This document shows, in pieces, positions 3,999 through 42,015 of a stretch of 55,342 bases of DNA (the first letter of the stretch is position 1; each line of letters opens with the position of its first letter). The position numbers and the translations under genes are program-made. The notes beneath the pieces are model-generated. The model saw nothing but the letters and a program-made list of their open reading frames with translations. It was not told where the DNA came from and made no database searches. Source of the DNA: an uncultured Spirochaetota bacterium (GTDB taxonomy: Bacteria; Spirochaetota; Spirochaetia; SZUA-6; Fen-1364); the NCBI GenBank assembly GCA_963745235.1, contig CAVUXE010000069.1, positions 1 to 55,342 on the forward strand, in the 5' to 3' direction.

Positions 3999-4224
3999 GA
4001 TCCCGTTCGTCCGAGGTATCGGGTTTTCTCGCGGCCCGGGCCGCTGTTTCAAGCTCGTCATAGACGCATGTTGATCGTATCGCTCCCGAGGGTGAGCAAC
4101 AAGCTCCTCTTTTCACAAATCTGAGCTGGCGCGCAAGTTGCTGCAGCAAGTGGGCATCACAAAGGAAGTCTTATCGACTCGCGAACCAACCGGCTTGAAA
4201 CTGAGGACAGTCCTTCGCACACTC

Positions 4225-6252
4225 CTATCCCACCTGGAAAGCCTTGCCGATGGCTGTAGCCTCAACCTGGATCCCTAGAAGAACCTCATTCCCGTCCGAC
4301 GCCTTCGGGGCGCTGATGCGCACATCAGTAGTTACCGTGATCTCGCCATGGGCTCCGCGGCGGATGGCTTCCTCCACAGCCGCTTCCCGGGCGGCCCTCC
4401 GGGCCTCCTCGATGGCTGCCGTCTGGTCCCCAATATGGATCGCCCCAGATTCTCCGAAGACCGCATAGCCCATTAGCCCGTCGATGGAATACTGCGGCTT
4501 GATCTCCACCCTGCGGGTCGCGCGGATGCTCCCCACGATCGCGCCCAGCGCGTTGGCCACCCCCGCGTTCTCGGGAATCACGCACCGTGTTCCCAAAGCC
4601 TCGGCCACGGGGGGTAGGAAAAGGTGAATGGGCGCCCCGACGCCCACGAGCGCTGCCGAGGTGTCGAAACTGAATCCCAGCAGATTTCGTCTCTTGCCAT
4701 GACGGGCCATGTCCCAGCTCGTCGCAATAAGCTGATCCAGGCCGTCGGAAGAAGCGGAAAGGGAGCCGGCAAGAAATGCGTACTGGTCTTCCAGGAGCAC
4801 CGTGACCACAGCCCGGTATAGCCTGCGCTGCACCTCATCGTATACCATCTCCTGGAGGGTGGCGGAAGTAACCGCGAGGCAGGAGGCGAAGAAGGAGGCG
4901 CCCAGCGCCGCGGCCTCGGTGTCGAACCGGGTGAAATCCCCCCGCAAGTGCATGATGTCCGTCGGCGTGAGGCCGCTGCGCAGGATCACCCCTTCCTCTT
5001 CAAGCCGGCGCACATCCAGGTTATAGGGGCTCGTGCCGGCCGCCTCAGCCGCCTCCGCGAACGAAAGCGGGCCGTCCCGGAGGGCTTGGCAGAAGCTCTT
5101 TTCCGCGCTTGTGTAGGCGGAACTGGCGGAGATGTCCTTTGGCGAGCAGAAGAACTCGTGCAGGGGAAGCGGGTGGCCCGCAGGCCTGCGCCGGACCAGG
5201 TCAGCCAGCTTCGCAGTGACCGACGGCCACGTGGAAGCCGCTACGGACAGCGGCAGAAGCCTCGCTGGTTCCAGCCGCATGACGCCGTGGCCGTCCAAGC
5301 GTACCGCGCTGTCTCCACCAAGCCCGAATGACCGCACGGAGAGCCCCTTCACGAACGTTTTCCACTTGCCGACGTGCACGCCCTCGCTTGCCTTGCGAGG
5401 AACGCCGCCAGTGACGATGGCGATGTCCGTCGTGGTCCCTCCCATGTCGATGACGAGGCAGTCTTTCTCCCCGGCAAGGGCGAGGCCGCCCATGACGCTC
5501 GCGGCCGGGCCGCAAACGAGCGTCTCCACCGGCCGGTGCTCAGCGTAGCGTCCGGACATGAGGCTGCCGTCGCTCCTCATGATGACCACCGGGGCGGTGA
5601 TGGAGCGCTGGCGTAGTGCGGTGCTCGTGGCAAGGAGGAACTCGTTGATGAGGGGAACAAGCCGGGCGTTAAGGAGCACACTGGATCCCCGGCGTAGAGA
5701 GTTGAGGTCCGAGAACAGTTCGTGGCCGCAGACCACGGGTATGTTGAAAGCGGTGCTAAGGAACACGCTGGCCTGCTTCTCCAGCGCGCCGCCGTTGTCC
5801 ATGGCGTCGATATCCACGATGCCTGCACCGCAGGCGTCCTTGATCCATGCTCCACCGGCCCGAAGGAACGAGTCCCAGTCCGGGGTCCGCACGATCTCTC
5901 CCGCGGTGGTGGTCTTGGCGTCCACGTGGAAGATCTCGCCGTCCGACGGCAGGCCGTACTCCGCGCCGTAGCGCTCCACGATCCAGGGCTGCACGCCGAT
6001 GAACAGGAGCCTGGCGCGCCCACCCTTGTCCTCCACGCACGCGTTGGTGGCCAGCGTAGTGGACAGGGAGATCATCTCCGCACTGCGCACGAGATCCAGT
6101 GGGAGGGCATCCAGTGCGGCGCCGATGCCCACAGACAAGTCCGCCTTAGTGGTCTGGGCCTTGGCGGCCGCCAGTACCCGCTGAGCGTCGAAGTCGTATG
6201 CGACGGCATCAGTGTAGGTTCCGCCCGTGTCGATGCCGATTCCGATTCCCAT
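4225..6252 (-). CDS. Hydantoinase/oxoprolinase family protein (A-type subunit, stand-alone)
   Basis: GIDTGGTYTD, LSTTLATNA, CGPAASVMG, IDMGGTTTDIA, GLGGDS and VANALGA motifs. Confidence 0.9.
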   Translation of the reverse strand: MGIGIGIDTGGTYTDAVAYDFDAQRVLAAAKAQTTKADLSVGIGAALDALPLDLVRSAEMISLSTTLATNACVEDKGGRARLLFIGVQPWIVERYGAEYGLPSDGEIFHVDAKTTTAGEIVRTPDWDSFLRAGGAWIKDACGAGIVDIDAMDNGGALEKQASVFLSTAFNIPVVCGHELFSDLNSLRRGSSVLLNARLVPLINEFLLATSTALRQRSITAPVVIMRSDGSLMSGRYAEHRPVETLVCGPAASVMGGLALAGEKDCLVIDMGGTTTDIAIVTGGVPRKASEGVHVGKWKTFVKGLSVRSFGLGGDSAVRLDGHGVMRLEPARLLPLSVAASTWPSVTAKLADLVRRRPAGHPLPLHEFFCSPKDISASSAYTSAEKSFCQALRDGPLSFAEAAEAAGTSPYNLDVRRLEEEGVILRSGLTPTDIMHLRGDFTRFDTEAAALGASFFASCLAVTSATLQEMVYDEVQRRLYRAVVTVLLEDQYAFLAGSLSASSDGLDQLIATSWDMARHGKRRNLLGFSFDTSAALVGVGAPIHLFLPPVAEALGTRCVIPENAGVANALGAIVGSIRATRRVEIKPQYSIDGLMGYAVFGESGAIHIGDQTAAIEEARRAAREAAVEEAIRRGAHGEITVTTDVRISAPKASDGNEVLLGIQVEATAIGKAFQVG

Positions 6253-10275: not shown

Positions 10276-11744
10276 GCCGGCAGGTGGGCCGCCGCGTGAG
10301 CCACCACGCGGTCGATCTCTTTCATGGTTGCCGAGTCCACCACCGGCTCGGGTTTCTCTTCCCACAGCGAGCGCGCAAGCTCCCTCGCGCGCTCCTCCAT
10401 GCCCTTCGTGCTGGCGCCGTGGGCGGCGTCCCACTTCACCGTCTCGAAGAGGTTGGAGAAAAACAGCTCGTCTCGGAAATGGTCCACGGTGTGCTGCTCC
10501 CCCAGGAAGTTGCCTCCGATGCCGACCTTCTCTATGGTGTCCAGCGCCAGCGTATCGTCGTTGACCTCGATAGGCTTGAGGATCCTCCTCATGCCGCGAA
10601 AGATCTCGTTGTCGATGACGAGCTGCTGCGGAGAAAAAGTTACCGCATTCTCCAGGTGTCCGACCACCCCGATCCCGACCGCCCCCGCGAGAACGGGAAA
10701 CACGGTGCTCATGGTCTTGTCGATGCCGGCCTGGACGTTGACGAAGCAGCTGTCGGTCTTGGCCCCGTGCACGCCGCTGGGGCACCCGTAGTATTCCGAG
10801 ATCATCTGCACCCGGGCTACCAGCAGCGGCATGCGGTCCGCGCTTGCGTAGCGGAACAGGCCGCTCGCCATGTCGCAGTACGAGGGAATGATGTCCACGC
10901 CGACAACCGCGTTCTCATCGATGGCGTAGGCCAGCACGAGCCCGCCGAGGGTTTCCGCCACGCCCACCACGAGGGTGCCTGCGGCCGTGGCGGGCGCGGT
11001 GGCACCGCCGTTGGGCATGGTGTCCAGCGTCTGGGGGAGTCCCCGCTCTATGTACTCCACGAAAATGTCCGCCATGTTGGAATCGAGGCAGAGAGGGGAC
11101 TTTGCTTCCGAGTAGCCCACCAGGATCGGTTCCCTCTTGAGCGCTTCCAGGCCGCCCTTGACGATGGAACCGATCTCGATGAGGTAAGGGACGTCCTCCG
11201 GCCGGAAGGTTTCCACCCCGCCGAACTTCGTCGTGTACTTGGCCAGCTCGGCCGCCATGCGGACCGGGCGCAACCGGAAAGGGACCTCCTGGTCGGACAC
11301 GGGGAGGCCGGTGTAGTCGATGTCGGTGAGCCGGTTCACCAGGTGGATGGACCGGTGCACGTCGTCCATGGTGGCCGGCCGCCGGCGCCCCTGGAAATCC
11401 CATATGTAGACGCAGAAGCCCCCGGCGCTGGTGGTGAAGTCCGGGTGAATGCGGTGCGGCTCCTTGCGGAACCGGATGTGCGCGTAGCGCACCGACATCC
11501 GCGCGGGAAGGCGGTCCGGGTTGTCGTAGGCCCGGCGCATCCGGTCCACGGCGTCCTGGACGATGCGCTTCGGGAACTTCACTACGCAGGACTGCTCGTC
11601 CACGGAGCAGCCGGCCTTGCGCAGATACGCCAGGGCCCGGGTGCTCTCGAAGCGCATGCCCACACGCTCCAGGACGTGCAGCGCGCCCTCGTGGATCCGC
11701 TCCATTTCCGCCATGGACAGCACACGAATCGGTTCCAAGAACAT
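10272..11744 (-). CDS. Trimethylamine methyltransferase (MttB) superfamily protein, non-pyrrolysine
   Basis: IHEGALHVLERVGMRF, GATAPATAAGTLV, QAGIDKT, FSPQQLVIDNEI, TLALDTIEKVGIGGNFL and QHT motifs; no in-frame UAG. Confidence 0.92.
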   Translation of the reverse strand: MFLEPIRVLSMAEMERIHEGALHVLERVGMRFESTRALAYLRKAGCSVDEQSCVVKFPKRIVQDAVDRMRRAYDNPDRLPARMSVRYAHIRFRKEPHRIHPDFTTSAGGFCVYIWDFQGRRRPATMDDVHRSIHLVNRLTDIDYTGLPVSDQEVPFRLRPVRMAAELAKYTTKFGGVETFRPEDVPYLIEIGSIVKGGLEALKREPILVGYSEAKSPLCLDSNMADIFVEYIERGLPQTLDTMPNGGATAPATAAGTLVVGVAETLGGLVLAYAIDENAVVGVDIIPSYCDMASGLFRYASADRMPLLVARVQMISEYYGCPSGVHGAKTDSCFVNVQAGIDKTMSTVFPVLAGAVGIGVVGHLENAVTFSPQQLVIDNEIFRGMRRILKPIEVNDDTLALDTIEKVGIGGNFLGEQHTVDHFRDELFFSNLFETVKWDAAHGASTKGMEERARELARSLWEEKPEPVVDSATMKEIDRVVAHAAAHLPA

Positions 11745-29360: not shown

Positions 29361-29670
29361 TGGCAAATGAAATTGTGAGATAACCGTCAATCATTTCTTC
29401 TGAGGGTCAAAGAGGCCAAATCGACAACGGATCTTATTTATTTGTCTATTAAATAGTTAAAGGTAGGAAACTCCTTTCCATGCCGGAATTCAAGCTCAAA
29501 ACCAAAGCGAGGCTGCAGGCGGCCGTCCTGATTATTACGCATGATATATAATGATATTTATTGACAAATCTTGATGAATGTGGGAAGATGCGTCACTGAT
29601 GGAGGACGCGAGGACGCTGGCTGACGCCGCCGACTCGACGGGTCCATCAAAGACTTCCAAGGAGGAGAAC

Positions 29671-30672
29671 ATGAAGATCAAAACGATCCTCGGTGTCGTG
29701 CTTTCCCTGGTGATCTTGAGCGCCGCGACGGCAAGCGCCCAGGCCTCGGAACCAAAGACCATCACAATTGGTCTTTCGTGGAACGAGAAGATGCAATCCC
29801 TGGTCCAGGCCTGGGACGACTACATGAAGCAATATGCCTCGGAATATGGGGCCAAGAACGGAATCACAATCAAATGGATCACCAATGTCGCGGACAGCGA
29901 TCCTTCGCAGCAGGCTTCCAACATTGAAGATCTGATCAGCCAAAAGGTCGACGTAATCATCGCGCGTCCCCACGACGCTGCAGCGATCGGTGCGTCGATT
30001 ACAGCGGCGCATAAGGCAGGGATCAAGTTCATTACTTTCGACAGGAAATCTTCGGGGGCACAACCAGACGCCCATGTGGGTGCGGACAGCTACAACCAGG
30101 CGATAACGACGGCGCAGGCATTTGCGAAGATTTTGAAAGACGCGGGTATCAAGGGAAAAGCTATTGAGCTAATGGGCGACTTGCGCGACATGAACGCCGT
30201 TCAGCGCTCGCAAGGCTGGCACAAAGTCGAAAACGATCTGCATCAGTGGCAGACGGTGATCCAAGTGCCCACTGAATGGAACCCAGAGAAGTTCCTGACA
30301 GGCACGACCAACGCTCTCCAGGCTCATCCTGAGGCAAATTGCATTTTCGTGGCGAGCGATTTCTGCTTTTCCGCGGTGGAGACTGCTCTCAAGAACGCGA
30401 ATCGGTGGGCTCCGGTTGGCGACCCGAATCATGTGTATATCGCGGCGCAGGACGTGAATCCACAAGGCTACGAGGCTATGAAGGGCGGCTACATCGATGT
30501 AGCAACTACCTACGACGCCTATTTCCATGCGGTGGAGCTGGTCAAGGTCGCTGTTCGGCTCGCCTCAGGCGAGGACCTCAAGGGCAAGGACTTCCTAGTG
30601 CCTGGCCGTGTCGCAACACCGGCCAACGTTGAGAAGCTCAACAACATGTGGGCTCGCGACTACAAGGATTGA
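29671..30672 (+). CDS. Monosaccharide/polyol ABC substrate-binding protein
   Basis: AGGAGG RBS, signal peptide, QQASNIEDLISQKVDVII and ITFDR motifs. Confidence 0.92.
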   Translation: MKIKTILGVVLSLVILSAATASAQASEPKTITIGLSWNEKMQSLVQAWDDYMKQYASEYGAKNGITIKWITNVADSDPSQQASNIEDLISQKVDVIIARPHDAAAIGASITAAHKAGIKFITFDRKSSGAQPDAHVGADSYNQAITTAQAFAKILKDAGIKGKAIELMGDLRDMNAVQRSQGWHKVENDLHQWQTVIQVPTEWNPEKFLTGTTNALQAHPEANCIFVASDFCFSAVETALKNANRWAPVGDPNHVYIAAQDVNPQGYEAMKGGYIDVATTYDAYFHAVELVKVAVRLASGEDLKGKDFLVPGRVATPANVEKLNNMWARDYKD

Positions 30673-30752
30673 GACCTTCGCGCGTTCCGACAGTCCGGCG
30701 CCATTCAAGCAGCGCCGGACTGCAACGCAATTTTCCGCATGGAGAGTCTCCA

Positions 30753-31724
30753 ATGGCAAACACGACACTAGAGGCGAAAGCGAACGCCGATCTGGGACGC
30801 TCCCGACTTGTGCTCCGTTTCATACCGGTTGCTCTTTTCGTTGCTGTGATCGTGTTTCTGGGATTTGCGGTCGATCGGTTCTTCACCGCCAACAACCTGC
30901 TGAATATTCTGATGCAATCGTCAGCGCTTGGATTCATGGCCATTGGCATGACCGCAGTCTTGCTAACAGGAGGAATCGACCTTTCTATCCCGGCCATTAT
31001 GGCATTTGCCGGAATCCTCGGCTCAATGTACATGCGCGAGGGTGGCAATCCGCTGATCGCCGCGGCCATCATGATAGGTGCAGGTGTGGCGGGGGGGGCG
31101 CTCAACGGTCTTGCTGTGGCCTTTCTAGGCATGATCCCCTTCGTCGTCACACTTTCCACCCAGGCGATAGCCATGGGCGCCTGCGTCATGATCACCAACT
31201 CAGTCAGTGTTCTCGGGCTGAAGCAGTCGTTTCTTGACACCGTTATGTCCAGAATACTGCAGATCCCAACGCCGATTGTGGCTCTCGGGACGGTGACGCT
31301 AATTGTAGGCGTCTTGTCAAAGAAGAGTTTCGTTGGGCGCTGGCTCTATGCTGTCGGAATGAACTCGGAAACTGCTCGCGTGAGTGGGGTTCCCAAGGGC
31401 CGAGTTCTTTTTGGCTCCTACGCATTTGCTGGTCTTTTCGCTGGCCTCGCTGCAATCGTCGTGACCGCGAGGCTTGCTTCTGCCTCACCAACGATGGGGG
31501 AGGAGGGCGTAGTTCTCAATGTCGTCGGCTCGGCCGTCGTCGGTGGAGTAAGCATTTATGGAGGGGCAGGGTCATTCGCCGGGGCGGTTGTCGGAGCTGT
31601 CATCATAACGATGATCAGCAACATAATGAACATGGCACATCTCTCATACTATGCCACTCTAATCGTTAAGGGGCTCGTGATAATTACTGTCGTTGCGATT
31701 GATTCGCGCTCTAGGAGGGCGTAG
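30753..31724 (+). CDS. Monosaccharide ABC permease
   Basis: TGGIDLSI, IPFVVTL and VVGGVSIYGGAG motifs. Confidence 0.92.
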   Translation: MANTTLEAKANADLGRSRLVLRFIPVALFVAVIVFLGFAVDRFFTANNLLNILMQSSALGFMAIGMTAVLLTGGIDLSIPAIMAFAGILGSMYMREGGNPLIAAAIMIGAGVAGGALNGLAVAFLGMIPFVVTLSTQAIAMGACVMITNSVSVLGLKQSFLDTVMSRILQIPTPIVALGTVTLIVGVLSKKSFVGRWLYAVGMNSETARVSGVPKGRVLFGSYAFAGLFAGLAAIVVTARLASASPTMGEEGVVLNVVGSAVVGGVSIYGGAGSFAGAVVGAVIITMISNIMNMAHLSYYATLIVKGLVIITVVAIDSRSRRA

Positions 31725-31727
31725 GGG

Positions 31728-33251
31728 GTGATTGTGTCCTCGGCATGTTTGAAACTTGTCGAAATTCGAAAGAGATTCCCCGGCGTAGTGGCTCTCAACG
31801 GCATCAATCTGGAATTGCAATGCAATGAAGTGCTTGCGCTCATCGGTGCCAACGGGGCAGGCAAGAGCACTCTTATGAACGTGCTTGGCGGAATCGTCCG
31901 GATGGACTCCGGCCTGATCGAGATAGATGGAAAAGCGGTTGAGCTCAGGAATCCCCTTGACGCCAAGCAAAGGGGCATTGCCTTTGTACACCAGGAAATG
32001 GCTCTTCTCCCCTCGATGAGCATAGCCGACAACATGTACATCTCGGACTTCCCAAAGACAAGGAGAGGCCTCATTGACTATGAGACGATTGAATCGCGCT
32101 GTTTGAAGGTGCTCAGGACTCTTGGCTGCTCTCTCTCGCCGCGGGCGAGAATCCGAAGTCTCGGAGCCGGCGACCGCCAAATCGTCGAGATCGCTCGAGC
32201 CTTGCTGTCAGCACCAAGGATCATAATATTTGACGAGCCTACGTCCTCACTATCAGGCACGGAGAAGATTAAGCTTTTCGAGGTCATTCATTCTCTCAGG
32301 AATGGTGGATGCGCAATTATCTATATAACTCATTTTCTAGACGAGATCTTCACGCTCTGCGACAGGGCTCTTGTCCTTCGAAACGGGGAGATAGCAGGAG
32401 GAGGGAAGATCTCGGAGCTCGATTACGAGAAGGTCGTCAAGCTCATGCTCGGCAGTTCCGATCTCGCGCTGTCGAGGGCGAACGCGAGGAAGGAACGGAG
32501 GATAGGAGAAATCAGGCTCAAGGTGACCAACTTGGAACAGAAAGGATCGTTTGAAGGTGTGAACCTTGCGCTGCATTCTGGGGAAGTCGTCGGTCTTTGG
32601 GGCCTTCTTGGTTCTGGGCGAAGCGAGCTCGCACGAGCCATAGCAGGCCTCGACACCATCGACCGCGGAGTCATAGAAGTGCGGGTGCAAGGAAAACTTC
32701 GAAAGATAAAGCGCCGAGCGGCGAAAAAGTGGATTGGCATGATCACGGAAAACCGGCGAGAGGATGGACTCTTGGGGGGGGCGTCCGTTCGGAAGAACAT
32801 TTCTCTCGCGAGTCTTCCGTCCTTATTGTCTGCTATTTGGCCGTTCATAGATGAGCGAAGAGAGAAGGCCGAGGCGCGCAAACTTGTCGAGAAGCTGGGG
32901 GTGAAGAGCACAAGCATAGAGCAGACAGTCGCGACACTGAGCGGCGGCAATCAACAGAAAGTCATCCTTAGTCGTTGGCTTCAGAGAGACCCTCCTATCC
33001 TGATTATGGACGAGCCAACGAGGGGTCTGGACGTCGGGGCGAAGTTGGAAATTCAGTCAGAGATATCTTCAGTGGCAGCGAAAGGCTCCGCGATTCTGGT
33101 CATCTCGTCGGAGATTGAAGAAATAATGAGCGTCAGCGATCGCTATATCGTGCTTCATCGGGGGCGCGTTGTTGCAGAACTTGGTCCGGAGGCGAACAAG
33201 GAGAGCCTTCTCAGCGCGGCAGTTGGCATCGCTCAGGGGGGGCTTAGGTGA
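31728..33251 (+). CDS. Monosaccharide ABC ATP-binding protein
   Basis: GANGAGKST, FDEPT and LSGGNQQK motifs. Confidence 0.94.
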   Translation: MIVSSACLKLVEIRKRFPGVVALNGINLELQCNEVLALIGANGAGKSTLMNVLGGIVRMDSGLIEIDGKAVELRNPLDAKQRGIAFVHQEMALLPSMSIADNMYISDFPKTRRGLIDYETIESRCLKVLRTLGCSLSPRARIRSLGAGDRQIVEIARALLSAPRIIIFDEPTSSLSGTEKIKLFEVIHSLRNGGCAIIYITHFLDEIFTLCDRALVLRNGEIAGGGKISELDYEKVVKLMLGSSDLALSRANARKERRIGEIRLKVTNLEQKGSFEGVNLALHSGEVVGLWGLLGSGRSELARAIAGLDTIDRGVIEVRVQGKLRKIKRRAAKKWIGMITENRREDGLLGGASVRKNISLASLPSLLSAIWPFIDERREKAEARKLVEKLGVKSTSIEQTVATLSGGNQQKVILSRWLQRDPPILIMDEPTRGLDVGAKLEIQSEISSVAAKGSAILVISSEIEEIMSVSDRYIVLHRGRVVAELGPEANKESLLSAAVGIAQGGLR

Positions 33252-34261
33252 AACCAAGCGGAACTTGGTTGGATGAATGCATCGAGTTTCTCCGCGAGTA
33301 CGGTTTTGTCGCTATATTGATGAGTGTCATTGTCATATTCTCGGTATTGTCGAAGACATTCCTTTCGTTGACCAATATCCTTGGACTGTTGCACACCTCT
33401 GTGCCTCTGATAATAGTCGCTGCGGGGCTGGCTTTGGTAGTCATGACGGGGAAGCTTGACATATCGATAGGATCAGCGTCCTTCCTGAGCGGCGCGGTTG
33501 GCGCAATACTCATGACTCGACTTCATGTTTCGCCCGCGATAGGTCTGCCCGTCGTCATTGCGACGGGAGCTTTGTGTGGCACAGTCAATGGAGTGTTGTG
33601 CGTCTATTTGCGCGTCAATCCGCTCATTACCACAATGGGATCCATGTTTGTTTTCCGGGGCATGGCTTTGCAGCTCACGGGCTCTCGGGCGATTAGTGTC
33701 TCTCAAGGGTTGCGCGATTTTGGGAATTACAGGATCGGACCTGTTTTTGTCGACATACTTATTGCCGGCTTCTTTCTGCTGCTCATCCACACCCTGCATA
33801 CACGAACGGCCTTTGGCAGACGCGTCATGGCTATTGGCACCAACGCCGAGACTGCGTCAAAGCTTGGCGTGCGGGTACGTGAGGTGAGCCTCGTAACTTT
33901 TGTGATCTCAGGACTTTGCGCAGGAATTGGGGGCCTTTTCTCAGTCTTTCAGATCGGAGCCGTGACGAATCAGATGGGCTCGGGGCTTGAGTTCACCGCA
34001 ATTGCAGCGATTGTGATCGGTGGGATAAGCCTTTTTGGTGGCGACGGAGCCATTCTCCCTAACTACCTTCTCGGCGTGCTGACATTGGGGATAATCGAGA
34101 ATGGGCTTAATCACATAGGCGCGTCGCCCTATCTTTATCCGTTTGTTCGTGGAGGCATCATATTGGTGGCGATGTACGCGGACTCCCTCAAAAGAAGACG
34201 GAAGCGACTTGCGGCAGCAAGCTCGATGGCTTCGCAGGAATCGATGACATCCGCCAGGTAG
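33248..34261 (+). CDS. Monosaccharide ABC permease
   Basis: TGKLDISIG, AIGTN and VIGGISLFGG motifs. The tail overlaps the antisense HEPN remnant. Confidence 0.92.
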   Translation: MKPSGTWLDECIEFLREYGFVAILMSVIVIFSVLSKTFLSLTNILGLLHTSVPLIIVAAGLALVVMTGKLDISIGSASFLSGAVGAILMTRLHVSPAIGLPVVIATGALCGTVNGVLCVYLRVNPLITTMGSMFVFRGMALQLTGSRAISVSQGLRDFGNYRIGPVFVDILIAGFFLLLIHTLHTRTAFGRRVMAIGTNAETASKLGVRVREVSLVTFVISGLCAGIGGLFSVFQIGAVTNQMGSGLEFTAIAAIVIGGISLFGGDGAILPNYLLGVLTLGIIENGLNHIGASPYLYPFVRGGIILVAMYADSLKRRRKRLAAASSMASQESMTSAR

Positions 34262-35217: not shown

Positions 35218-35622
35218 ATGAAAGCGAAAGTGGGCTTGTGGATTGATCACAGGAAGGCGATTGTAGTCGCTGTCACTGACAAAGGCGAAGAGACAGGACT
35301 GGTGATATCTGCGATTGAAAAACAGGCCCGTCGTTCTCAAAGTTCGCGCCATTTGGGTCACTACGAACCACAACAAGTACCGGCAGACGATAGTCGACAG
35401 AAAGCCTTTACGGGACATCTCAACATCTACTACGATGCGGTCATCGCGAGCATTCGTGCTGCGGAATCCATTCTGATCTTCGGTCCTGGTGAGGCAAAGG
35501 GCGAACTGAAAAAACGTCTTGAAAGAATCAACCTTGGCGGACGCATCATAAGTGTTGAAACAGTTGACAAGATGACGGATCGGCAGATTGCGGCGAAAGT
35601 TCGACGGTACTTTGCCAAATAG
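35218..35622 (+). CDS. Small protein resembling a single eRF1/pelota-type (baeRF-like) domain
   Basis: GLWIDHRKAIVV, ILIFGPGEAKGELKKRL and ETVDKMTDRQIAAKVRRYF motifs; AAGGAG RBS. Confidence 0.65.
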   Translation: MKAKVGLWIDHRKAIVVAVTDKGEETGLVISAIEKQARRSQSSRHLGHYEPQQVPADDSRQKAFTGHLNIYYDAVIASIRAAESILIFGPGEAKGELKKRLERINLGGRIISVETVDKMTDRQIAAKVRRYFAK

Positions 35623-35786
35623 CATTCAAGAAAGGAACTGATGCACTCGGCCTAGAGATTGTTTGGGACAACTAAACGCCGTACGCCGATTTTTCCGGCC
35701 ACCTCAACCCCGCTCAGCCCGCCTTTTCCCCTTCGCATAGTCCGCGGTCACCCGAGCCTCTTGGATTGTTGCCCGCACGAAAGCCG

Positions 35787-37184
35787 TCACGTCCGCGAGC
35801 GCTGAGGCATGAACTGCTGCCATTTTTCGGCAGTGGATGGCTTGGATAGGAAGCTCACCACGACCAACACGACAAACGATACGGCAACGCCGATGAAGGC
35901 CGGCTCGAACCAGGAGTCCGAAGGCGGAGTCAGCTTGGGCAGCACCAGGAAGTGCCACAGCACCGATGCCGCCACTCCGACCAAGGACGAAAGCAGCGCG
36001 CCGACCGCGGTCGCCCTTTTCCAGTAGAAAGCGGCCAGGGTCGGGATGAAAGTCGCCGGTATGAAGATGCGGAAGGTAAGCTCGGTCAGCGAGACGACGT
36101 TCGGGTCGAGCCACGCAAAGAGCAATCCGAGCACACCCATCAAGGCGCTTATCCAGCGCACCTTGTTCATGCTCACCCGCTTCTGCGGCCAGATGCCCCT
36201 GACAAGCTGTGTCGCGGCCACAATCTGGAATATCACCACCGCAATGGCGCTGCCACTCAACATCGCAATGGCCACCAGGCCCCGCAGCCCCGGCGCCAGG
36301 GTTGCCGCCAGAGTGGGCATGGCCGCCTCGGGGTCAATCTTGGGAAAGAGGACGCTGGCGCCCATGCCGATGAAAGCGGCCGCCAACCCCACCACGGCGA
36401 TGATGACCCCGGCGAAGCTCAGTCCCACCTTGGCGGCGCGCGCGTTTTTTGCGGAGAAAACGAGCTGGTAGATATCCGCTGCCACCCACATGCTCAGGGT
36501 CATCACCCAGAAGAAGGCCCAGACGAACGGCCACGCGCCCGCCGAAAAGAGGTTGAAGGAGCCCGGCGGCAGAGCGGCCGTGAGGTGCGCCCAGCCGCCT
36601 GCCCTCGAGATAGCGAAGGAAACCAGGATCACAAGCCCCACAAAAAGGATGCAGAACTTGATGATGTTGGTTACGGCAGACGCCCACAACCCACCCAGCG
36701 CCGTATAGGTGATGAACGGGACCGCCATGATGAGCATGGCCGGGAACAGAGGGATATTGAACAGCGATTTGAGCACCTGGCCTCCGCCGACAAAGCCGAT
36801 GCTTAGGAGAATAACGTAGGCGATGGTGCCGAGAATGGAAAGGGTGACGCGCGCGCGAGCGTCGTATCTCATATTGAACACATCGATCAGGGAGTATTGA
36901 GCCAACGCTCGCAGCCTACCGGCCACTGTGAGAAGGAGAATCCAGGCGCCAACCGCCAGCATGATAAAGAACCATGCGCCAACCATCCCAAACGAGTATC
37001 CTAACCCTGCGACACCCACTGTGGCGCTCGAAATGCCCGCCGCGATTGTCATAGCGATGAAGAACGCGTTGAACTTGCGCCCTGCAACCAGATAATCATC
37101 GTAGTTGCTGGAGCGCCTGTACATCATTACGCCGATCACAAAAATGACGACGAAGTAGACAACAACCAGAATCGTGTCAATCAC
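35787..37184 (-). CDS. Sodium:solute symporter (SSS) family transporter
   Basis: DYLVAGR, YTALGGLWAS and YWKRATAVGA motifs; about 13 hydrophobic segments; GGAGGT RBS with GTG start. Confidence 0.92.
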   Translation of the reverse strand: MIDTILVVVYFVVIFVIGVMMYRRSSNYDDYLVAGRKFNAFFIAMTIAAGISSATVGVAGLGYSFGMVGAWFFIMLAVGAWILLLTVAGRLRALAQYSLIDVFNMRYDARARVTLSILGTIAYVILLSIGFVGGGQVLKSLFNIPLFPAMLIMAVPFITYTALGGLWASAVTNIIKFCILFVGLVILVSFAISRAGGWAHLTAALPPGSFNLFSAGAWPFVWAFFWVMTLSMWVAADIYQLVFSAKNARAAKVGLSFAGVIIAVVGLAAAFIGMGASVLFPKIDPEAAMPTLAATLAPGLRGLVAIAMLSGSAIAVVIFQIVAATQLVRGIWPQKRVSMNKVRWISALMGVLGLLFAWLDPNVVSLTELTFRIFIPATFIPTLAAFYWKRATAVGALLSSLVGVAASVLWHFLVLPKLTPPSDSWFEPAFIGVAVSFVVLVVVSFLSKPSTAEKWQQFMPQRSRT

Positions 37185-37206
37185 GGCAATCCACCTCCCT
37201 TAGGCC

Positions 37207-37244
37207 AAAAAAAACCCTGAGCTCCGATAAATCGGAACCCAGGG
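37207..37244 (-). terminator. Intrinsic terminator (riboswitch expression platform)
   Basis: CCCTGGGTTCCGA-TTTA-TCGGAGCTCAGGG followed by T8, between the aptamer and the RBS. Confidence 0.88.
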
Positions 37245-37269
37245 ATTTGCCATCTCCCGAGGCCACGTT

Positions 37270-37442
37270 CAACGATCGGCAGGTCTTCTGGCTCTAGTTC
37301 ACCCTACTCTCCGGCCTTCCCATCCCGATTGGTCGTGGACAGTGGCATACGCGGATTTCGTCCCTATTACAGCGGCGGGACCGCGCCCGGCTTCAACGGG
37401 CTTCCCTATTAAGTCCCGATTCTATCGGGACGCCGATCGTTG
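37270..37442 (-). ncRNA. Cobalamin (B12) riboswitch
   Basis: P1 CAACGATCGGC/GCCGATCGTTG; core AATAGGGAA-GCCCGTTGAAGCCGGGC-GCGGTCCCGCCGCTGTAA; GCCACTG...GGGAAGGC; B12 box GAGCCAGAAGACCTGCC. Confidence 0.95.
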
Positions 37443-37461
37443 GATCGTCAAATGTGCATAG

Positions 37462-37490
37462 GGTTTACAGCGTTGGTGGTTTCCTGTCAA
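37462..37490 (-). promoter_or_regulatory. Probable promoter for the riboswitch-SSS transcript
   Basis: TTGACA-N17-TAAACC, about 20 nt upstream of P1. Confidence 0.55.
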
Positions 37491-37622
37491 GAGTGGGTTT
37501 CAGAAGCCACGATGACCGTGGACCCGTGATGGGGGCAGTTCCTATTCCCACGGCATGCGCGAGCCCTTGAGTGCCCAATCTGGCCAGAATACGTCATAAC
37601 GAGCATCCCGCAATCCCTGTGA

Positions 37623-38193
37623 GTGCTCGGTGGCGGTATCGGACTGGGCGTGGTCGCGGCTGTACTATCGATTCTTTGCAGCATCGTTTACCTCGCCTCG
37701 AAGGGAGTCGTTCCATGGGGACTTGACCTCAACGATTTGCCTCCTCCTGTGGACAGTGGCCGCCCTTCCCGTCGCCCGGCTAACCGGGAGGCAACGGAAG
37801 GTCAACGAAGAGCTGACTCTGTTCTGTTCGCTCGTCGACCATACGAGCGACGCCATTCATGTAATAGACCCGAAAACGGGCCGGTTCCTGGATGTGAACA
37901 TGAAAGCCCGCGTCACTTACGGCTACACCCGGCGGGAATACCTGTCGTTCGGAACTTGCGATATCGATATCCTGGGTGAACAGCCCTGGCAAAAGGTCGC
38001 GGAGAAGATCCGACGCGATGGACACTGTGAGGTGGAGAGTCGTCATCGACGTAATGACGGCTTAACGTTTCCTGTAGAAGTCAGTTTCGTCTACATCCAT
38101 TTGAACCGTGACTACATCATAGCTGTCGCACGGGACACCAGCGACAGAAAACGAGCGGAGGCCGCGCTGCGTCTGCATGACCGGGCCATCCAA
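37623..38193 (+). pseudogene. Fragment of a membrane PAS-domain sensor (frameshifted, truncated)
   Basis: GGGIGLGVVAAVLS TM segment in one frame; PAS/PAC (LVDHTSDAIHVID...FPVEVS...ARDTSDRKRAE) in another; no output domain. Confidence 0.65.
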
Positions 38194-38318: not shown

Positions 38319-41300
38319 CTACGTCTTGTCAGGAGCCGCCACTGGAAGCCAGACCCGGAAGGTTGTCCCCACCCCCTTCGTGCTCTCCACCTCGATCCGC
38401 CCGCCGCTTTCCGCAACGGTGCTCTGACAGACGGAAAGGCTCAGGCCGATTCCCTTCACCCGCGCCTGCGTGGATCCCGGTTCTGCCCATTCGCCTTTCG
38501 TCGTGAAGAAAGGGGTGAAAATCCGCGGAGTGTTTTCAGGGGAAATCCCGCATCCGGTGTCGCTCACTTCCAGGGATGAGAAGCCGCCAGCCGCGCGGGT
38601 GCGCACCGTGATTGTCGGGGATGCGCGGCCCATGAGGGCATGGACGGAATTGGAGATGAGGCTCGTCAGGACGAAGCTCAGCATCCCATGAGACGCCAGG
38701 ACCGGGGCGGTCTGGCCCAGATCCACGGTCATGGAAATCCCCTCTTCCTCCATCTGCTTCTGGAACAGGGGAAGCATGGTCCGTACCGCCTCATCCAGCT
38801 TCATCTGCTCGGGGGATGAGGCAGAGGCGCTCGTCAGACCCTGGAGGCGCTCAGTGATGTCCACTGCACGCTGCACGGCCTTCAAGGCTTCCCGGATGTA
38901 CGACCTCGTGCTGGCGGCGAGGCTCTGATCCCGGGCGACGAAATCGAGGTACCCCTTGGCCGCCGTGTTGATGTTGTTGAACTGGTGCGCGATGCCGGCA
39001 GCCAGCGTCCCGAGGCTTTCAAGCCTTTGCGCCCTGATGATCTGAACCTGCATCGCCTTCTGAGCGGTCACGTCGCGGGAAATGCAGGTGATTCCGGCCG
39101 TCTGTCCCGATGCATCCTTGACGAGAGAGATCGAGGTGGAAACAAACACCGTCTGCCCATCTTTCCGCGTGACAGTGCTTTCCAGGTGCTGCAGCTCGCC
39201 CTCCTGCCTGACGAGTTCCCTGATCTCGGGTTCCCGGGCCATGAGCTCGGGAGAAAGAAGCTGGGTGATCGGGCTGCCGATCATTTCCTCACCCGTGTAC
39301 CCGAAGATCTTTTCCGCTCCCTTGTTCCAGCTCGTCACCGAGTAGGCCGTGTCCATGCCGATGATCGCGTCGTTGGAAGAATCCACCATCTCCGCAAGGC
39401 GGACGTTCCTCTCTTCCATCTGGCGGCGGTCCGTGATATCGCGAGATATCCCGAAGGTGCCGATGATCTCTCCCTTTGCATCGCGCAGGGGCATCTTTGT
39501 GGCGGAGATCCACAGCGGGTCGCTCCCGGCCCACAACTCTTGCCCCACGGCGTCGATGAGCGGCACTCCCGCAGCGATGATTCGCTGCTCGTCCTCGAAC
39601 GCCTTCCGGGCGAGAGGAAGGGGGAAGTAGTCGAAATCCGTCTTCCCCAGCATTTCCGAGGGATCCGCGGCTCCCAGGTCCTTTGCGTGAGCCTTGTTGA
39701 GCAGGATGAACCTGCTTTCCCGATCCTTGAAATAGATGTGATCCGGGACGGTGTCCATCAGCGCAGTCAGGAAGGCCCTTTCTCGAGCCAGAGCGGTTTC
39801 AGCCTCGATTCGCTCGGTGATGTCTTCCACGAATCCCTCGAGCTCTTTCCGGGAGGAATCAGGGTCGATGCGGACACGGGTCATCAGGTTCACGACGACC
39901 ACCCGACCGTCACGGTGCCGGTAGCGGTTCTGGATCTTGAGCCACCCGGAAGAGCGCTCGATGTCCTCGATCACGTGCGATCTTCGCGTGGGGTCCGCGT
40001 AGACGACCTCCGCGGCACTCTTCTGATTGACGGTCTCGATGAGATGCTCCGGGGAATCGTAACCGAGCATTCGGGCAAAGGCGGGATTGACGCTGATGAG
40101 CTTGCCATCAAAGGTCGAGCGGAAGATCCCCACCGGCGCCTCCATGAAAATGGAGCGGTACTCCTCCTCGCTCTGGCGGCGGGCGGTTTCAGCCTCGATT
40201 CGCTCGGTGATGTCTTCCACGAATCCCTCGAGCTCTTTCCGGGAGGAATCAGGGTTGATGCGGACACGGGTCATCAGGTTCACGACGACCACCCGACCAT
40301 CACGGTGCCGGTAGCGGTTCTGGATCTTGAGCCAGCCGGGAGAGCGCTCCATGTCCTCGACCACGTGCGATCTTCGCGTGGGGTCTGCGTAGACTACCTC
40401 CGCGGCACTTTTTGCGTTGACGGTCTCGATGAGATGCTCCGGGGAATCGTAACCGAGCATTCGGGCAAAGGCGGGATTGACGCTGATGAGCTTGCCATCA
40501 AAGGTCGAGCGGAAGATCCCCACCGGCGCCTCCATGAAAATGGAGCGGTACTCTTTCTCGCTCTGGCGGAGAGCCTCCTCGACATGCTTGAGAGAACTGA
40601 CGTCCCGGGTGATTCCGACCACGTTGGTGACCTTGCCTTGCGCATTGCGGACCGGCACCTTTGTCGTCAGGATGGAGCGCAGCTCGCCTCCGACGTTCTT
40701 GGGCTCTTCCTTGTTGATGAGTCTCTTCCCCTCTCGAATAATCTCCTGGTCATCCCTTTCGAACTCAGCGGCCAGGTCCCAGGGGTAGAAATCGTAATCC
40801 GTTTTCCCGATGAGCTCCTCCGGCGCGCCTGCTTGCATGACTTCCGCAATGGCCCTGTTGGCCACGATGAACCGCCCTTCCCTGTCCTTCAGGAAGAGGC
40901 CGTCCGGAACGTTGGTGATGACCTCCCGCAGGAGCGATCTTTCCTCTTCGATCCTGCGCTGGAGGTCTCTCCGCTCCGTTATGTCACGGACCACGCCGAC
41001 AATCCCGGTGATCCGCCCGGAGGAATCCCTGAGCGGAACCTTCGTGGTGAGGGCCCAGCCCTGCGCTCCATCGGCAGAGACAATCTCTTCCTCGAAGTTG
41101 GTCCTGGTTGCCCCGGTCCTCAACATCTCCTTGTCTTCAGCACGGAATCCGTCTGCCACTGACTTCGGGAAGAAATCATGCTCTGTCTTTCCGATGATGT
41201 CCTCGGGCGATTCTTTCCCCATGCGGTTCACGAGAGTCCGGTTGACGAGGGTGAACCTCCCGGCCCTGTCCTTGACGAAAATCTGGTCCGGCACCGTGTC

Positions 41301-41837
41301 TATGACGGTGCGGACCATCGATTGCTCACGAACGAGCTTATCCTGGAGCTCCTTGAGCTCCGTGATGTCGATGACGTTGACGAGCATGTATTGATAGGCG
41401 TCTTTCTCTCCCGGGATGATGGCACGAACAAGGATGGAAAGCTTTTTCCCGCTGAGTGTGAGAGCAGTGCTTTCCTGTTCGAGCAGAGTACGGCCCTCCG
41501 CGACCGCCGTGAACAGCTCGATGAAATCTTCGAGCGACTCGGGGTCCAGAGTGGTGTCCAGTGGTCCCCGGAGATCCTTCCTGCTCTTCGCGCCGTACAG
41601 TCGAACGGCGGCGTCGTTGACGTCCACTACGCGAACAGCCCTGATGCCCTTTCGGATCAGGGTATGATTCGCTCGAAGATAGGTGCGCAGGTCAGGGATC
41701 CTGCGGGACGACCACTCCCGCAGGAGGGCGCGCAGGCCCGAAATGTCCTCTTCCCACAGGGAAACTGCGGAATGCTCGAAGATGCTGCGGTCCTTGCCCG
41801 CGGTGCGTTTCGGCGAACGGGGTGAGGCTTTCGGCAT
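38319..41837 (-). CDS. Cytoplasmic multi-PAS (7 PAS) sensor histidine kinase
   Basis: Seven PAS/PAC repeats, most ending in DIT/DVT-type motifs; AAGIAHQFNN H-box; DTGCG, IFTPFFTTK and GLSLS. No TM segment. Confidence 0.92.
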   Translation of the reverse strand: MPKASPRSPKRTAGKDRSIFEHSAVSLWEEDISGLRALLREWSSRRIPDLRTYLRANHTLIRKGIRAVRVVDVNDAAVRLYGAKSRKDLRGPLDTTLDPESLEDFIELFTAVAEGRTLLEQESTALTLSGKKLSILVRAIIPGEKDAYQYMLVNVIDITELKELQDKLVREQSMVRTVIDTVPDQIFVKDRAGRFTLVNRTLVNRMGKESPEDIIGKTEHDFFPKSVADGFRAEDKEMLRTGATRTNFEEEIVSADGAQGWALTTKVPLRDSSGRITGIVGVVRDITERRDLQRRIEEERSLLREVITNVPDGLFLKDREGRFIVANRAIAEVMQAGAPEELIGKTDYDFYPWDLAAEFERDDQEIIREGKRLINKEEPKNVGGELRSILTTKVPVRNAQGKVTNVVGITRDVSSLKHVEEALRQSEKEYRSIFMEAPVGIFRSTFDGKLISVNPAFARMLGYDSPEHLIETVNAKSAAEVVYADPTRRSHVVEDMERSPGWLKIQNRYRHRDGRVVVVNLMTRVRINPDSSRKELEGFVEDITERIEAETARRQSEEEYRSIFMEAPVGIFRSTFDGKLISVNPAFARMLGYDSPEHLIETVNQKSAAEVVYADPTRRSHVIEDIERSSGWLKIQNRYRHRDGRVVVVNLMTRVRIDPDSSRKELEGFVEDITERIEAETALARERAFLTALMDTVPDHIYFKDRESRFILLNKAHAKDLGAADPSEMLGKTDFDYFPLPLARKAFEDEQRIIAAGVPLIDAVGQELWAGSDPLWISATKMPLRDAKGEIIGTFGISRDITDRRQMEERNVRLAEMVDSSNDAIIGMDTAYSVTSWNKGAEKIFGYTGEEMIGSPITQLLSPELMAREPEIRELVRQEGELQHLESTVTRKDGQTVFVSTSISLVKDASGQTAGITCISRDVTAQKAMQVQIIRAQRLESLGTLAAGIAHQFNNINTAAKGYLDFVARDQSLAASTRSYIREALKAVQRAVDITERLQGLTSASASSPEQMKLDEAVRTMLPLFQKQMEEEGISMTVDLGQTAPVLASHGMLSFVLTSLISNSVHALMGRASPTITVRTRAAGGFSSLEVSDTGCGISPENTPRIFTPFFTTKGEWAEPGSTQARVKGIGLSLSVCQSTVAESGGRIEVESTKGVGTTFRVWLPVAAPDKT
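39793..40569. repeat. Tandem 390-bp in-frame duplication (one PAS/PAC unit)
   Basis: 39793-40179 versus 40183-40569; about 15 mismatches in 387 nt by manual count. Confidence 0.95.
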
Positions 41838-41865
41838 AGGTGAGTCCTTGCGGCGTGATTGGCCA

Positions 41866-42015
41866 TGTGACGGGCCCCGGCTGGAGAACCGTGCCTTATG
41901 GGATGACAACGATTCCTTCCCTGACGGAGTGAGTCCTGAAGTCTCCGTCCCGATGGAGGAAGGGGTCGATGCCGATCCGGCTATTGTCGCCAAATGTGTG
42001 CGTTCTCGTCACGGC
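41866..42015 (-). pseudogene. glgC: 3' remnant of glucose-1-phosphate adenylyltransferase (glgC-like)
   Basis: Reads DENAHI/GDNSRIGIDPFLHRDGDFRTHSVREGIVVIP*GTVLQPG, with one frameshift and one stop. This matches my recollection of the GlgC C-terminus (DKNARIG...GIIVIPK...PGTVI). Confidence 0.6.

Follow-up and report, generated by a model that had tools for sequence, protein, structure and literature searches.

To our knowledge, no importer other than CblT is dedicated to the lower-ligand branch of cobamide biosynthesis; CblT is paired with a cytoplasmic enzyme that traps its substrate and serves organisms that do not make the base. In the PnuC/NadR and PnuT-type systems, a carrier takes up a membrane-permeant vitamin precursor, net uptake is driven by coupled phosphoribosyl or phosphoryl transfer, and expression is under riboswitch or repressor control. 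The classical B12-riboswitch regulon includes BtuB, BtuFCD, CbiMNQO, BtuM and CbrT, whose cargoes are corrinoids or cobalt and none of which belongs to the sodium:solute symporter (SSS) family; for the SSS transporters PanF, PutP and SMVT (TC 2.A.21), no B12 riboswitch or cobT context was reported in the literature searched. CblT itself, the energy-coupling factor (ECF)-type S component of Listeria and other Firmicutes, acts with the kinase CblS to salvage alpha-ribazole (PMC6461909 and PMC8123684); it is the nearest functional precedent for the locus described here. This is a minus-strand unit at positions 35,787 to 37,490 of a 55,342-nucleotide stretch (the window, meaning the whole stretch analysed) of contig CAVUXE010000069.1 from an uncultured Spirochaetota bacterium, in which an SSS transporter gene stands behind a cobalamin riboswitch. 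It is proposed that this gene probably encodes a B12-repressed importer of a free benzimidazole base, such as 5,6-dimethylbenzimidazole (DMB), that would be trapped by CobT.

The proposed system resembles CblT in combining import for the lower-ligand branch with a cytoplasmic trapping enzyme; however, CblT is part of an ECF/ATP-binding cassette (ABC) module that supplies a riboside to the CblS kinase, whereas here an SSS secondary carrier, the phosphoribosyltransferase CobT and presumably the free base would take these roles. With the Pnu-type systems it would share the logic of transport followed by metabolic trapping, although the fold is unrelated, the vitamin is different, and a contact between transporter and CobT is not claimed. 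The window transporter has the same Pfam family (PF00474) and fold as PanF, PutP and SMVT; unlike PanF and PutP, it scores far below the equivalog cut-offs, and the canonical Na2 Ser-Ser/Thr is not evident in it. Its regulator is of the same class (RF00174) and regulon as that of the classical importers, and the RNA element reads as an ordinary RF00174 member. Full-text searches, confined to main texts and mostly to journals outside subscription, turned up no paper that ties cobalamin riboswitches, DMB or cobT to a transporter of the SSS family. The parts of the unit, all on the minus strand, are the following, from promoter to gene.

37485-37490, minus strand: putative -35 hexamer TTGACA, a perfect consensus match at which the promoter scan made no call
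37467-37462, minus strand: -10 candidate TAAACC, 17 nt downstream of TTGACA, weak (3/6 match to TATAAT)
37261-37452, minus strand: full-length cobalamin riboswitch aptamer, RF00174 (cmscan)
37245-37260, minus strand: linker with a short alternative hairpin GGGA...UCCC and conserved loop AUGG(C/U)AAAU, candidate anti-terminator from the comparison of leaders
37207-37244, minus strand: intrinsic terminator, a 13-bp hairpin (37244-37215) followed by T8 (37214-37207)
37191-37200, minus strand: ribosome-binding site AGGGAGGTGG (GGGAGG), nine nt before the GTG start at 37184
35787-37184, minus strand: SSS-family (PF00474) transporter gene with GTG start at 37184, 465 aa, assigned here to a distinct B12-linked subfamily

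The aptamer scored 117.7 bits (gathering score 31.5, E 6e-29) and matched model positions 1-189 of 189 without truncation, bearing out the full B12 aptamer that an earlier sequence-only reading of the window had described and proposed to check by an Infernal scan of the Rfam models. It is the sole Rfam match in the 55-kb window and one of the two RF00174 matches in the source genome (5.85 Mb). The terminator and the ribosome-binding site named in that reading were also recovered as listed, the former being kept in orthologous leaders. The promoter was upheld in part: the -35 hexamer is perfect and CTTGACAG is invariant in six of six close leaders, upstream of which the sequences do not align, but TAAACC is a weak -10 element and the promoter scan called no site on the transporter's strand.

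The terminator stem has eight G-C pairs among its 13 bp and starts 16 nt after the aptamer. It was the one terminator-like site (n=1) in 35500-37800, where shuffled sequences gave a mean of 2.5, so that the count itself is not significant; the call is trusted because of its position between aptamer and ribosome-binding site and its conservation in orthologues. A script flagged a hairpin with a run of at least five T in 24 of the 26 orthologous leaders, and in the two exceptions (L031 and L036) the hairpin is kept and the T-run is interrupted. Terminator hairpin and closed aptamer occur together in both the minimum free energy and the centroid folds. The linker hairpin has its 3' arm overlapping the 5' arm of the terminator, and its stem covaries across leader types (GGGA/UCCC vs AGAGA/UCUCU in L007); this conserved small hairpin probably acts as an anti-terminator. 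Judging by family precedent, and by the fact that the terminator can form while the aptamer is folded, the riboswitch is most likely an OFF switch. A ligand-dependent partner was sought in the leaders through covariation of the L5 loops with the AUGG(U/C)AAAU loop or CCGUGG segments, with no convincing pairing; because neither a kissing-loop nor an anti-terminator pairing was convincing, OFF polarity is still inferred.

The transporter matches PF00474 (SSF) with 111.6 bits (cut-off 22.8, E 5e-32) over residues 31-403 and scores 105.9 for TIGR00813, under its cut-off of 184. Its best NCBIfam equivalog match is PanF (TIGR02119), still far under the cut-off with 100.2 vs 328, followed by PutP (TIGR02121; 86 vs 515.5) and ActP (TIGR02711; 47 vs 1099); the grouping with characterised proline and pantothenate transporters, which the sequence-only reading had named as counter-evidence, is thus not seen. 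The known B12 importer families (BtuCDF, BtuM, CbrT, CblT, CbiMNQO) gave no match at E <= 0.01; the only Pfam match was SSF, and all NCBIfam matches were SSS models. The AlphaFold model, made with 19 family members, has a mean predicted local distance difference test (pLDDT) score of 72.5 and a predicted TM-score (pTM) of 0.77. In Foldseek it gave TM-scores of 0.7-0.8 to SGLT1/2, SiaT, CHT1, vSGLT, NIS and SMCT1 at 15-21% identity, none of which stands out, and the protein is predicted to be an ordinary LeuT-fold SSS with 13 helices. A search of 5.8 billion proteins returned a tight block of relatives at 60-97% identity, with the next match at 36% and then 30-33%; these relatives are labelled Chloroflexota, Dehalococcoidia, one Spirochaetota metagenome-assembled genome (MAG) and Nitrososphaerales archaea. 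By these comparisons, the transporter belongs to a distinct, rare subfamily that falls in none of the characterised SSS subfamilies.

The invariant aromatic and charged membrane residues of the subfamily include W233, D237, Y239 and Q240 in transmembrane helix 6. In the HMMER alignment to vSGLT, residues S364/S365, which we take to be the Na2-site hydroxyl residues on the helix equivalent to TM8, face V316/V317, which are invariant; shifting the alignment locally would bring S310/G311 into their place, and position 310 is variable in the family. Fused forms of the transporter were not found among 815-2325-aa proteins at E <= 1e-30, a search that counts as weak evidence, and ESM Atlas returned only generic SSS clusters.

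The genome scan, with one genome per species, yielded 14 loci, comprising 12 orthologues (60-94% identity; seven bacterial and five archaeal) and two distant ones (25-28%). RF00174 was found by cmscan directly upstream and on the same strand in 7/7 bacterial orthologue loci and in none of the five archaeal or two distant loci. A metagenome scan added 26 loci, 19 of which have RF00174 upstream, with one aptamer cut by a contig end; the other seven include four of the archaeal type, two cut by the contig (L044 and L050) and L055, without a riboswitch. By eye, L044 and L050 begin inside the same leader, of which they retain the aptamer's B12-box end and the terminator-bearing expression platform, and L055 is a 58-residue partial match whose orthology is not established. 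Some loci are duplicates, with 33 distinct proteins among 36 tree rows. The proposed B12-linked SSS subfamily is delimited by at least about 60% identity to the window protein together with, in bacteria, a cobalamin riboswitch and, in archaea, a cobT that overlaps the transporter gene; it takes in the locus itself, 28 bacterial-type riboswitch loci and nine archaeal cobT loci, leaving L055 as an unresolved fragment.

The bacterial leaders fall into at least three sequence types that keep aptamer and terminator, which argues for selection on the arrangement and not for recent common descent alone. The sequence-only reading had considered that orthologues might lack the B12 element, which would leave an orphaned riboswitch in the window; with the element kept in 7/7 genome loci, 19 metagenome loci and the two contig-cut loci, the result came out in its favour. 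Genes downstream of the transporter are not conserved in bacteria, and the description of a lone SSS gene stands, as no same-strand neighbour is conserved across the bacterial orthologues; in the window, a 137-aa minus-strand open reading frame (ORF; 35625-35212) lies 161 nt downstream.

Two of these loci have further features. In a Chloroflexota MAG (L014:4001-5411), the SSS frame is interrupted, having a stop after 141 aa and a 418-aa ORF that resumes at 4155, by a frameshift or assembly error; the upstream riboswitch is intact (121 bits). In a 94%-identical relative (L003), a thiamine pyrophosphate (TPP) riboswitch (5553-5665, plus strand, 68 bits) directly follows the SSS gene, with a cytosine/purine/thiamine-type permease gene behind it (L003:5761-7119, plus strand) and an integrase-like gene at L003:2301-3566, so that two vitamin-precursor uptake modules adjoin; the window has no TPP riboswitch.

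In the five archaeal genome loci (5/5), the stop codon of the transporter and the start codon of the gene behind it overlap, within ATGA in L008 and within TGATG in L009-L012. The overlapping gene encodes the archaeal CobT, with 401.5 (L009) and 391.2 (L008) bits vs 240 for the equivalog TIGR00303 in the two loci scanned, and also a match to PF02277. CobT is the phosphoribosyltransferase that activates the lower-ligand base with nicotinate mononucleotide (NaMN). A tblastn search with the CobT of L009 against all 40 loci found it in nine, always directly after the transporter: the five archaeal genome loci and four metagenome loci (L048, L049, L051 and L054), the remaining seven CobT partners being 78-98% identical to that of L009. 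In G004, the transporter-coupled cobT is the sole DBI_PRT-family match in the genome, and besides cobT no archaeal neighbour is conserved. The linkage to cobT, which the sequence-only reading had suggested as a check, was therefore found, though in archaea, where cobT overlaps the transporter stop in 9/9 loci.

A conserved palindrome, TACAATTGTA, with a TATA-like TTATAT behind it, lies about 55-60 nt before the archaeal SSS start in 5/5 loci (L008-L012), and a small HTH_3 gene is convergent just after the archaeal cobT. An archaeal operator regulon based on TACAATTGTA was rejected, as genome-wide counts with one mismatch did not exceed those of the reversed-pattern control; the only further exact sites checked fall inside a coding region.

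Cobamide genes were searched in the source genome (G000, 85.7% complete), four other bacterial carriers (G001, G002, G003 and G009) and five archaeal carriers (G004-G008). Both cobT and cobS were present in 5/5 of the carriers G000-G004. BluB was not detected above the 150-bit cut-off in any of the ten carrier genomes (best 94 bits); the model works for archaea, giving 153-259 bits in 95 of the 201 genomes of the archaeal carriers' order. ThiC-family radical S-adenosylmethionine (SAM) genes number zero in the source genome and one in each of the other four tested carriers, which leaves no spare BzaA/B/F-type paralogue in the five. The marker of de novo corrin-ring synthesis, CbiC, was absent from 4/4 bacterial carriers and present in the archaeon G004, and CbiB was found in G001 and G004 only among the five. 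With cobT and cobS present, CbiC absent and neither BluB nor Bza detected, the bacterial carriers look like corrinoid salvagers that attach a lower ligand to the salvaged corrinoid without a known benzimidazole route. By its gene content, G004, a carrier from the archaea, synthesises its corrin ring de novo, and BluB was not detected in it.

Each bacterial carrier has two to three cobalamin riboswitches, one of which controls the transporter; the others control BtuB (in the source genome) or BtuF-BtuC genes that run into cobT-cobS. The source genome also has a salvage cluster of btuF, cobU, cobT and cobS (G000 contig C37:68703-72079; L029:6704-10080), ahead of which no riboswitch was found. 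As the sequence-only reading had pointed out, an MttB-family gene is present in the window (10287-11735, minus strand, 227 bits); the source genome has three MttB-family genes (the others at C9:105652-107070 and C54:74306-75727) and five B12-binding-domain proteins, indicating corrinoid demand.

Two aptamer sizes occur in the carriers (L065, L066, L067 and L069 compared with L061-L064): in front of the SSS gene stands a long form of about 180-190 nt (104-121 bits), and in front of the btuF genes a short form of about 140-150 nt (45-52 bits); the two could sense different corrinoid forms. Additionally, in two Chloroflexota carriers the salvage cluster encodes, between btuD and cobT, a roughly 238-aa protein with weak similarity to QueG and to reductive dehalogenases (L018:641-1357 and L020:534-1253).

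Under the proposed reading, the unit would be a self-contained B12-regulated uptake module, in which the promoter drives a leader with an adenosylcobalamin (AdoCbl)-type cobalamin riboswitch. When cobamide is scarce, RNA polymerase would read through the leader and the transporter would be made; with ample AdoCbl, the aptamer would fold, the terminator hairpin with its T8 would form, and the gene would be off. From the water of soil or peat, the transporter would take up the free base, which would be DMB or a related benzimidazole; CobT in the cytoplasm would convert it with NaMN to alpha-ribazole phosphate, which would be unable to leave the cell (metabolic trapping), and CobS would join this to activated corrinoid salvaged through a second B12-regulated system (BtuB, BtuF). 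Substrate, transport direction, coupling ion and OFF polarity are inferred in this scheme. Import of a small cobamide building block had been suggested from the window's DNA, and the carrier comparison supports it; the coupling to cobT would narrow the list toward the free base used by CobT. In soils, free DMB exceeded cobalamin according to the part of PMC6908642 available, which gives an ecological rationale for base import. The wider claim, that this is the first dedicated high-affinity transporter for free lower-ligand bases (DMB or other benzimidazoles), with an SSS fold, CobT trapping, repression by the finished cobamide via a riboswitch, and a module that moves between phyla and domains, is evenly balanced in our estimation.

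One alternative is that the transporter imports alpha-ribazole (the DMB riboside) or another pre-activated form of the lower ligand, as a CblT analogue in a different fold. Control by a B12 riboswitch and the regulon context would fit it equally well, and SSS members among the structural neighbours carry polar glycosides, e.g. sugars and sialic acid. Furthermore, CblT/CblS is the sole lower-ligand salvage importer named in the accessible parts of PMC6461909 and PMC8123684, and alpha-ribazole has been found in environmental dissolved organic matter (PMC9296465, in the portion available). However, alpha-ribazole bypasses CobT and needs the kinase CblS, whereas the archaeal partner is a translationally coupled CobT and cobT is present in every tested carrier; the free base is favoured over the riboside because the conserved partner is CobT and not a riboside kinase, and import of alpha-ribazole is considered unlikely. 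Coupling to cobT together with B12 regulation would be compatible with any reactant of CobT, and the cargo might accordingly be another small molecule of the CobT step or nucleotide loop: nicotinate (a by-product of CobT or a precursor to NaMN), a base that is phenolic or a purine, or aminopropanol/threonine for the linker. Human SMCT1, whose structure is among the neighbours of the model, has been reported to carry nicotinate. But nicotinate and NaMN are general intermediates of nicotinamide adenine dinucleotide (NAD) metabolism with no obvious reason for B12 control, a linker precursor could not be used by the three of four bacterial carriers that lack CbiB, purine bases are made endogenously, and phenolic lower ligands need an ArsAB-type CobT, leaving this group of solutes distinctly unlikely.

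A nutrient whose demand varies with B12 status, being either the product of a B12-dependent reaction (e.g. methionine) or a substrate of corrinoid methyltransferases, would also account for riboswitch control, as cobalamin riboswitches control B12-independent isozymes such as metE as well. The MttB-family methyltransferases encoded in window and genome and an MtaA/URO-D-like gene downstream of the transporter in L013 point the same way, and an ON instead of an OFF switch would add weight. Such a cargo is nevertheless quite improbable, since it leaves the cobT overlap in 9/9 archaeal loci unexplained, the bacterial downstream genes are not conserved, and the other riboswitches of the carriers all control corrinoid uptake or salvage. 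Corrinoids (cobinamide or cobalamin) and cobalt are the classical cargoes of B12-riboswitch transporters in Rodionov-type regulons (PMC8123684, within its accessible text). The carriers, however, already hold riboswitch-controlled BtuB or BtuF-BtuC systems, and the absence of CbiC from 4/4 bacterial carriers would leave little use for cobalt. The modelled protein is an ordinary 465-aa LeuT-fold SSS (TM-score 0.7-0.8 to SGLT, SiaT, CHT1 and NIS), and we know of no SSS family member whose cargo is a bare metal cation or weighs about 1 kDa. Because of the fold and because other riboswitch-controlled systems already serve these needs, corrinoids or cobalt are a very improbable cargo.

Several observations weigh against a dedicated importer of the free base. 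As a small hydrophobic molecule, DMB is generally taken to enter cells by diffusion. Selection for DMB-resistant Salmonella gave no DMB-uptake mutants, according to the accessible part of PMC10468695; this fits entry by diffusion, in which case the benefit of a dedicated carrier would be confined to trace concentrations. CobT could also use endogenous purines, which would make import not strictly needed. Na+ coupling is doubtful, as the canonical Na2 serines are not evident, and OFF polarity is uncertain, with a conserved small hairpin overlapping the terminator. In the source genome, the cobU and cobT frames are interrupted, cobT being in three pieces with one TGA; the same split occurs in several few-contig assemblies of the genus, and assembly error is plausible, although it could alternatively be gene decay.

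The distribution of the transporter is a further difficulty for this reading. The subfamily is rare: the pattern scan of species genomes gave 12 orthologue loci, and the transporter is in 5/201 genomes of the archaeal carriers' order and in 1/401 sampled Chloroflexota, which is the centre genome itself, so that no co-occurrence statistics are possible. Among the source genome and its relatives, only 2/41 have it (the source genome and G613), while cobT is present in 17/20 congeners and BluB in 0/41 relatives, nearly all of them without the transporter; the gene is therefore an accessory one, dispensable for the presumed lifestyle. Complementarity with BluB was uninformative among these relatives (BluB 0/41), and a missing BluB is the norm of the lineage and not a signature of carriers. 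In the archaeal order, BluB was found in 0/5 carriers vs 95/196 non-carriers, but all five of these carriers belong to a single clade. A quick maximum-likelihood tree places the bacterial rows with the riboswitch and the archaeal rows with cobT on opposite sides of one branch (96 in the Shimodaira-Hasegawa-like approximate likelihood-ratio test, SH-aLRT), so that the riboswitch label and the cobT label each need one origin only. Read from this tree, the evidence is one of long retention and not of repeated independent gain. The source clade is nested among Chloroflexota rows, and the riboswitch-gene module appears to have been transferred as a unit into the source lineage.

Contigs from four RNA libraries match the locus; all are assembled contigs, giving neither levels nor ends, and DNA carry-over is possible. 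In two runs of one study, the contigs cover the aptamer only (37261/2-37442, 0 differences); these could come from a stable terminated or processed leader or be an assembly artefact, and one of them continues into unlike sequence at the 3' end of the aptamer. Two other studies yielded contigs from relatives (90-97% alike) that span parts of the coding sequence, one of them bridging aptamer, terminator and start codon (37116-37318); the uncovered part, about 36645-36959, carries no meaning. These contigs indicate presence in RNA libraries and nothing more.

Elsewhere in the window, some 1.5 kb away from the SSS gene and on the other strand, is a sugar-type ABC importer operon (29578-34261, plus strand) that appears to have no relation to it; the operon encodes a Peripla_BP_4 binding protein, a pair of BPD_transp_2 permeases and a double ABC ATPase. 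Long ORFs also overlap on opposite strands, with 1224 aa at 38319-41993 (minus strand) and 725 aa at 38985-41162 (plus strand), the latter having no Pfam match.

Cobamide biology has left unaddressed how free lower-ligand bases, DMB among them, get into cells. The identity of the lower ligand determines which cobamide is made by a cell and which of its neighbours are able to use this cobamide. Because the family is rare, the ecological weight of the transporter is probably modest, and its main value would be mechanistic and as a lead to analogous transporters. A base importer would be a clean test case in which a riboswitch sensing the finished cofactor controls the import of one half of it. 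Once defined, it would give a marker gene for guided biosynthesis or remodelling in metagenomes, and it may help to increase the DMB uptake of strains used for production or bioremediation, e.g. cobalamin-needing Dehalococcoidia. If the proposed function is true, communities of soil, peat and hot springs would actively scavenge lower-ligand bases as public goods, instead of the bases just diffusing into cells, and some archaea of the carriers' order would complete a de novo corrinoid with an imported base instead of one made by BluB.

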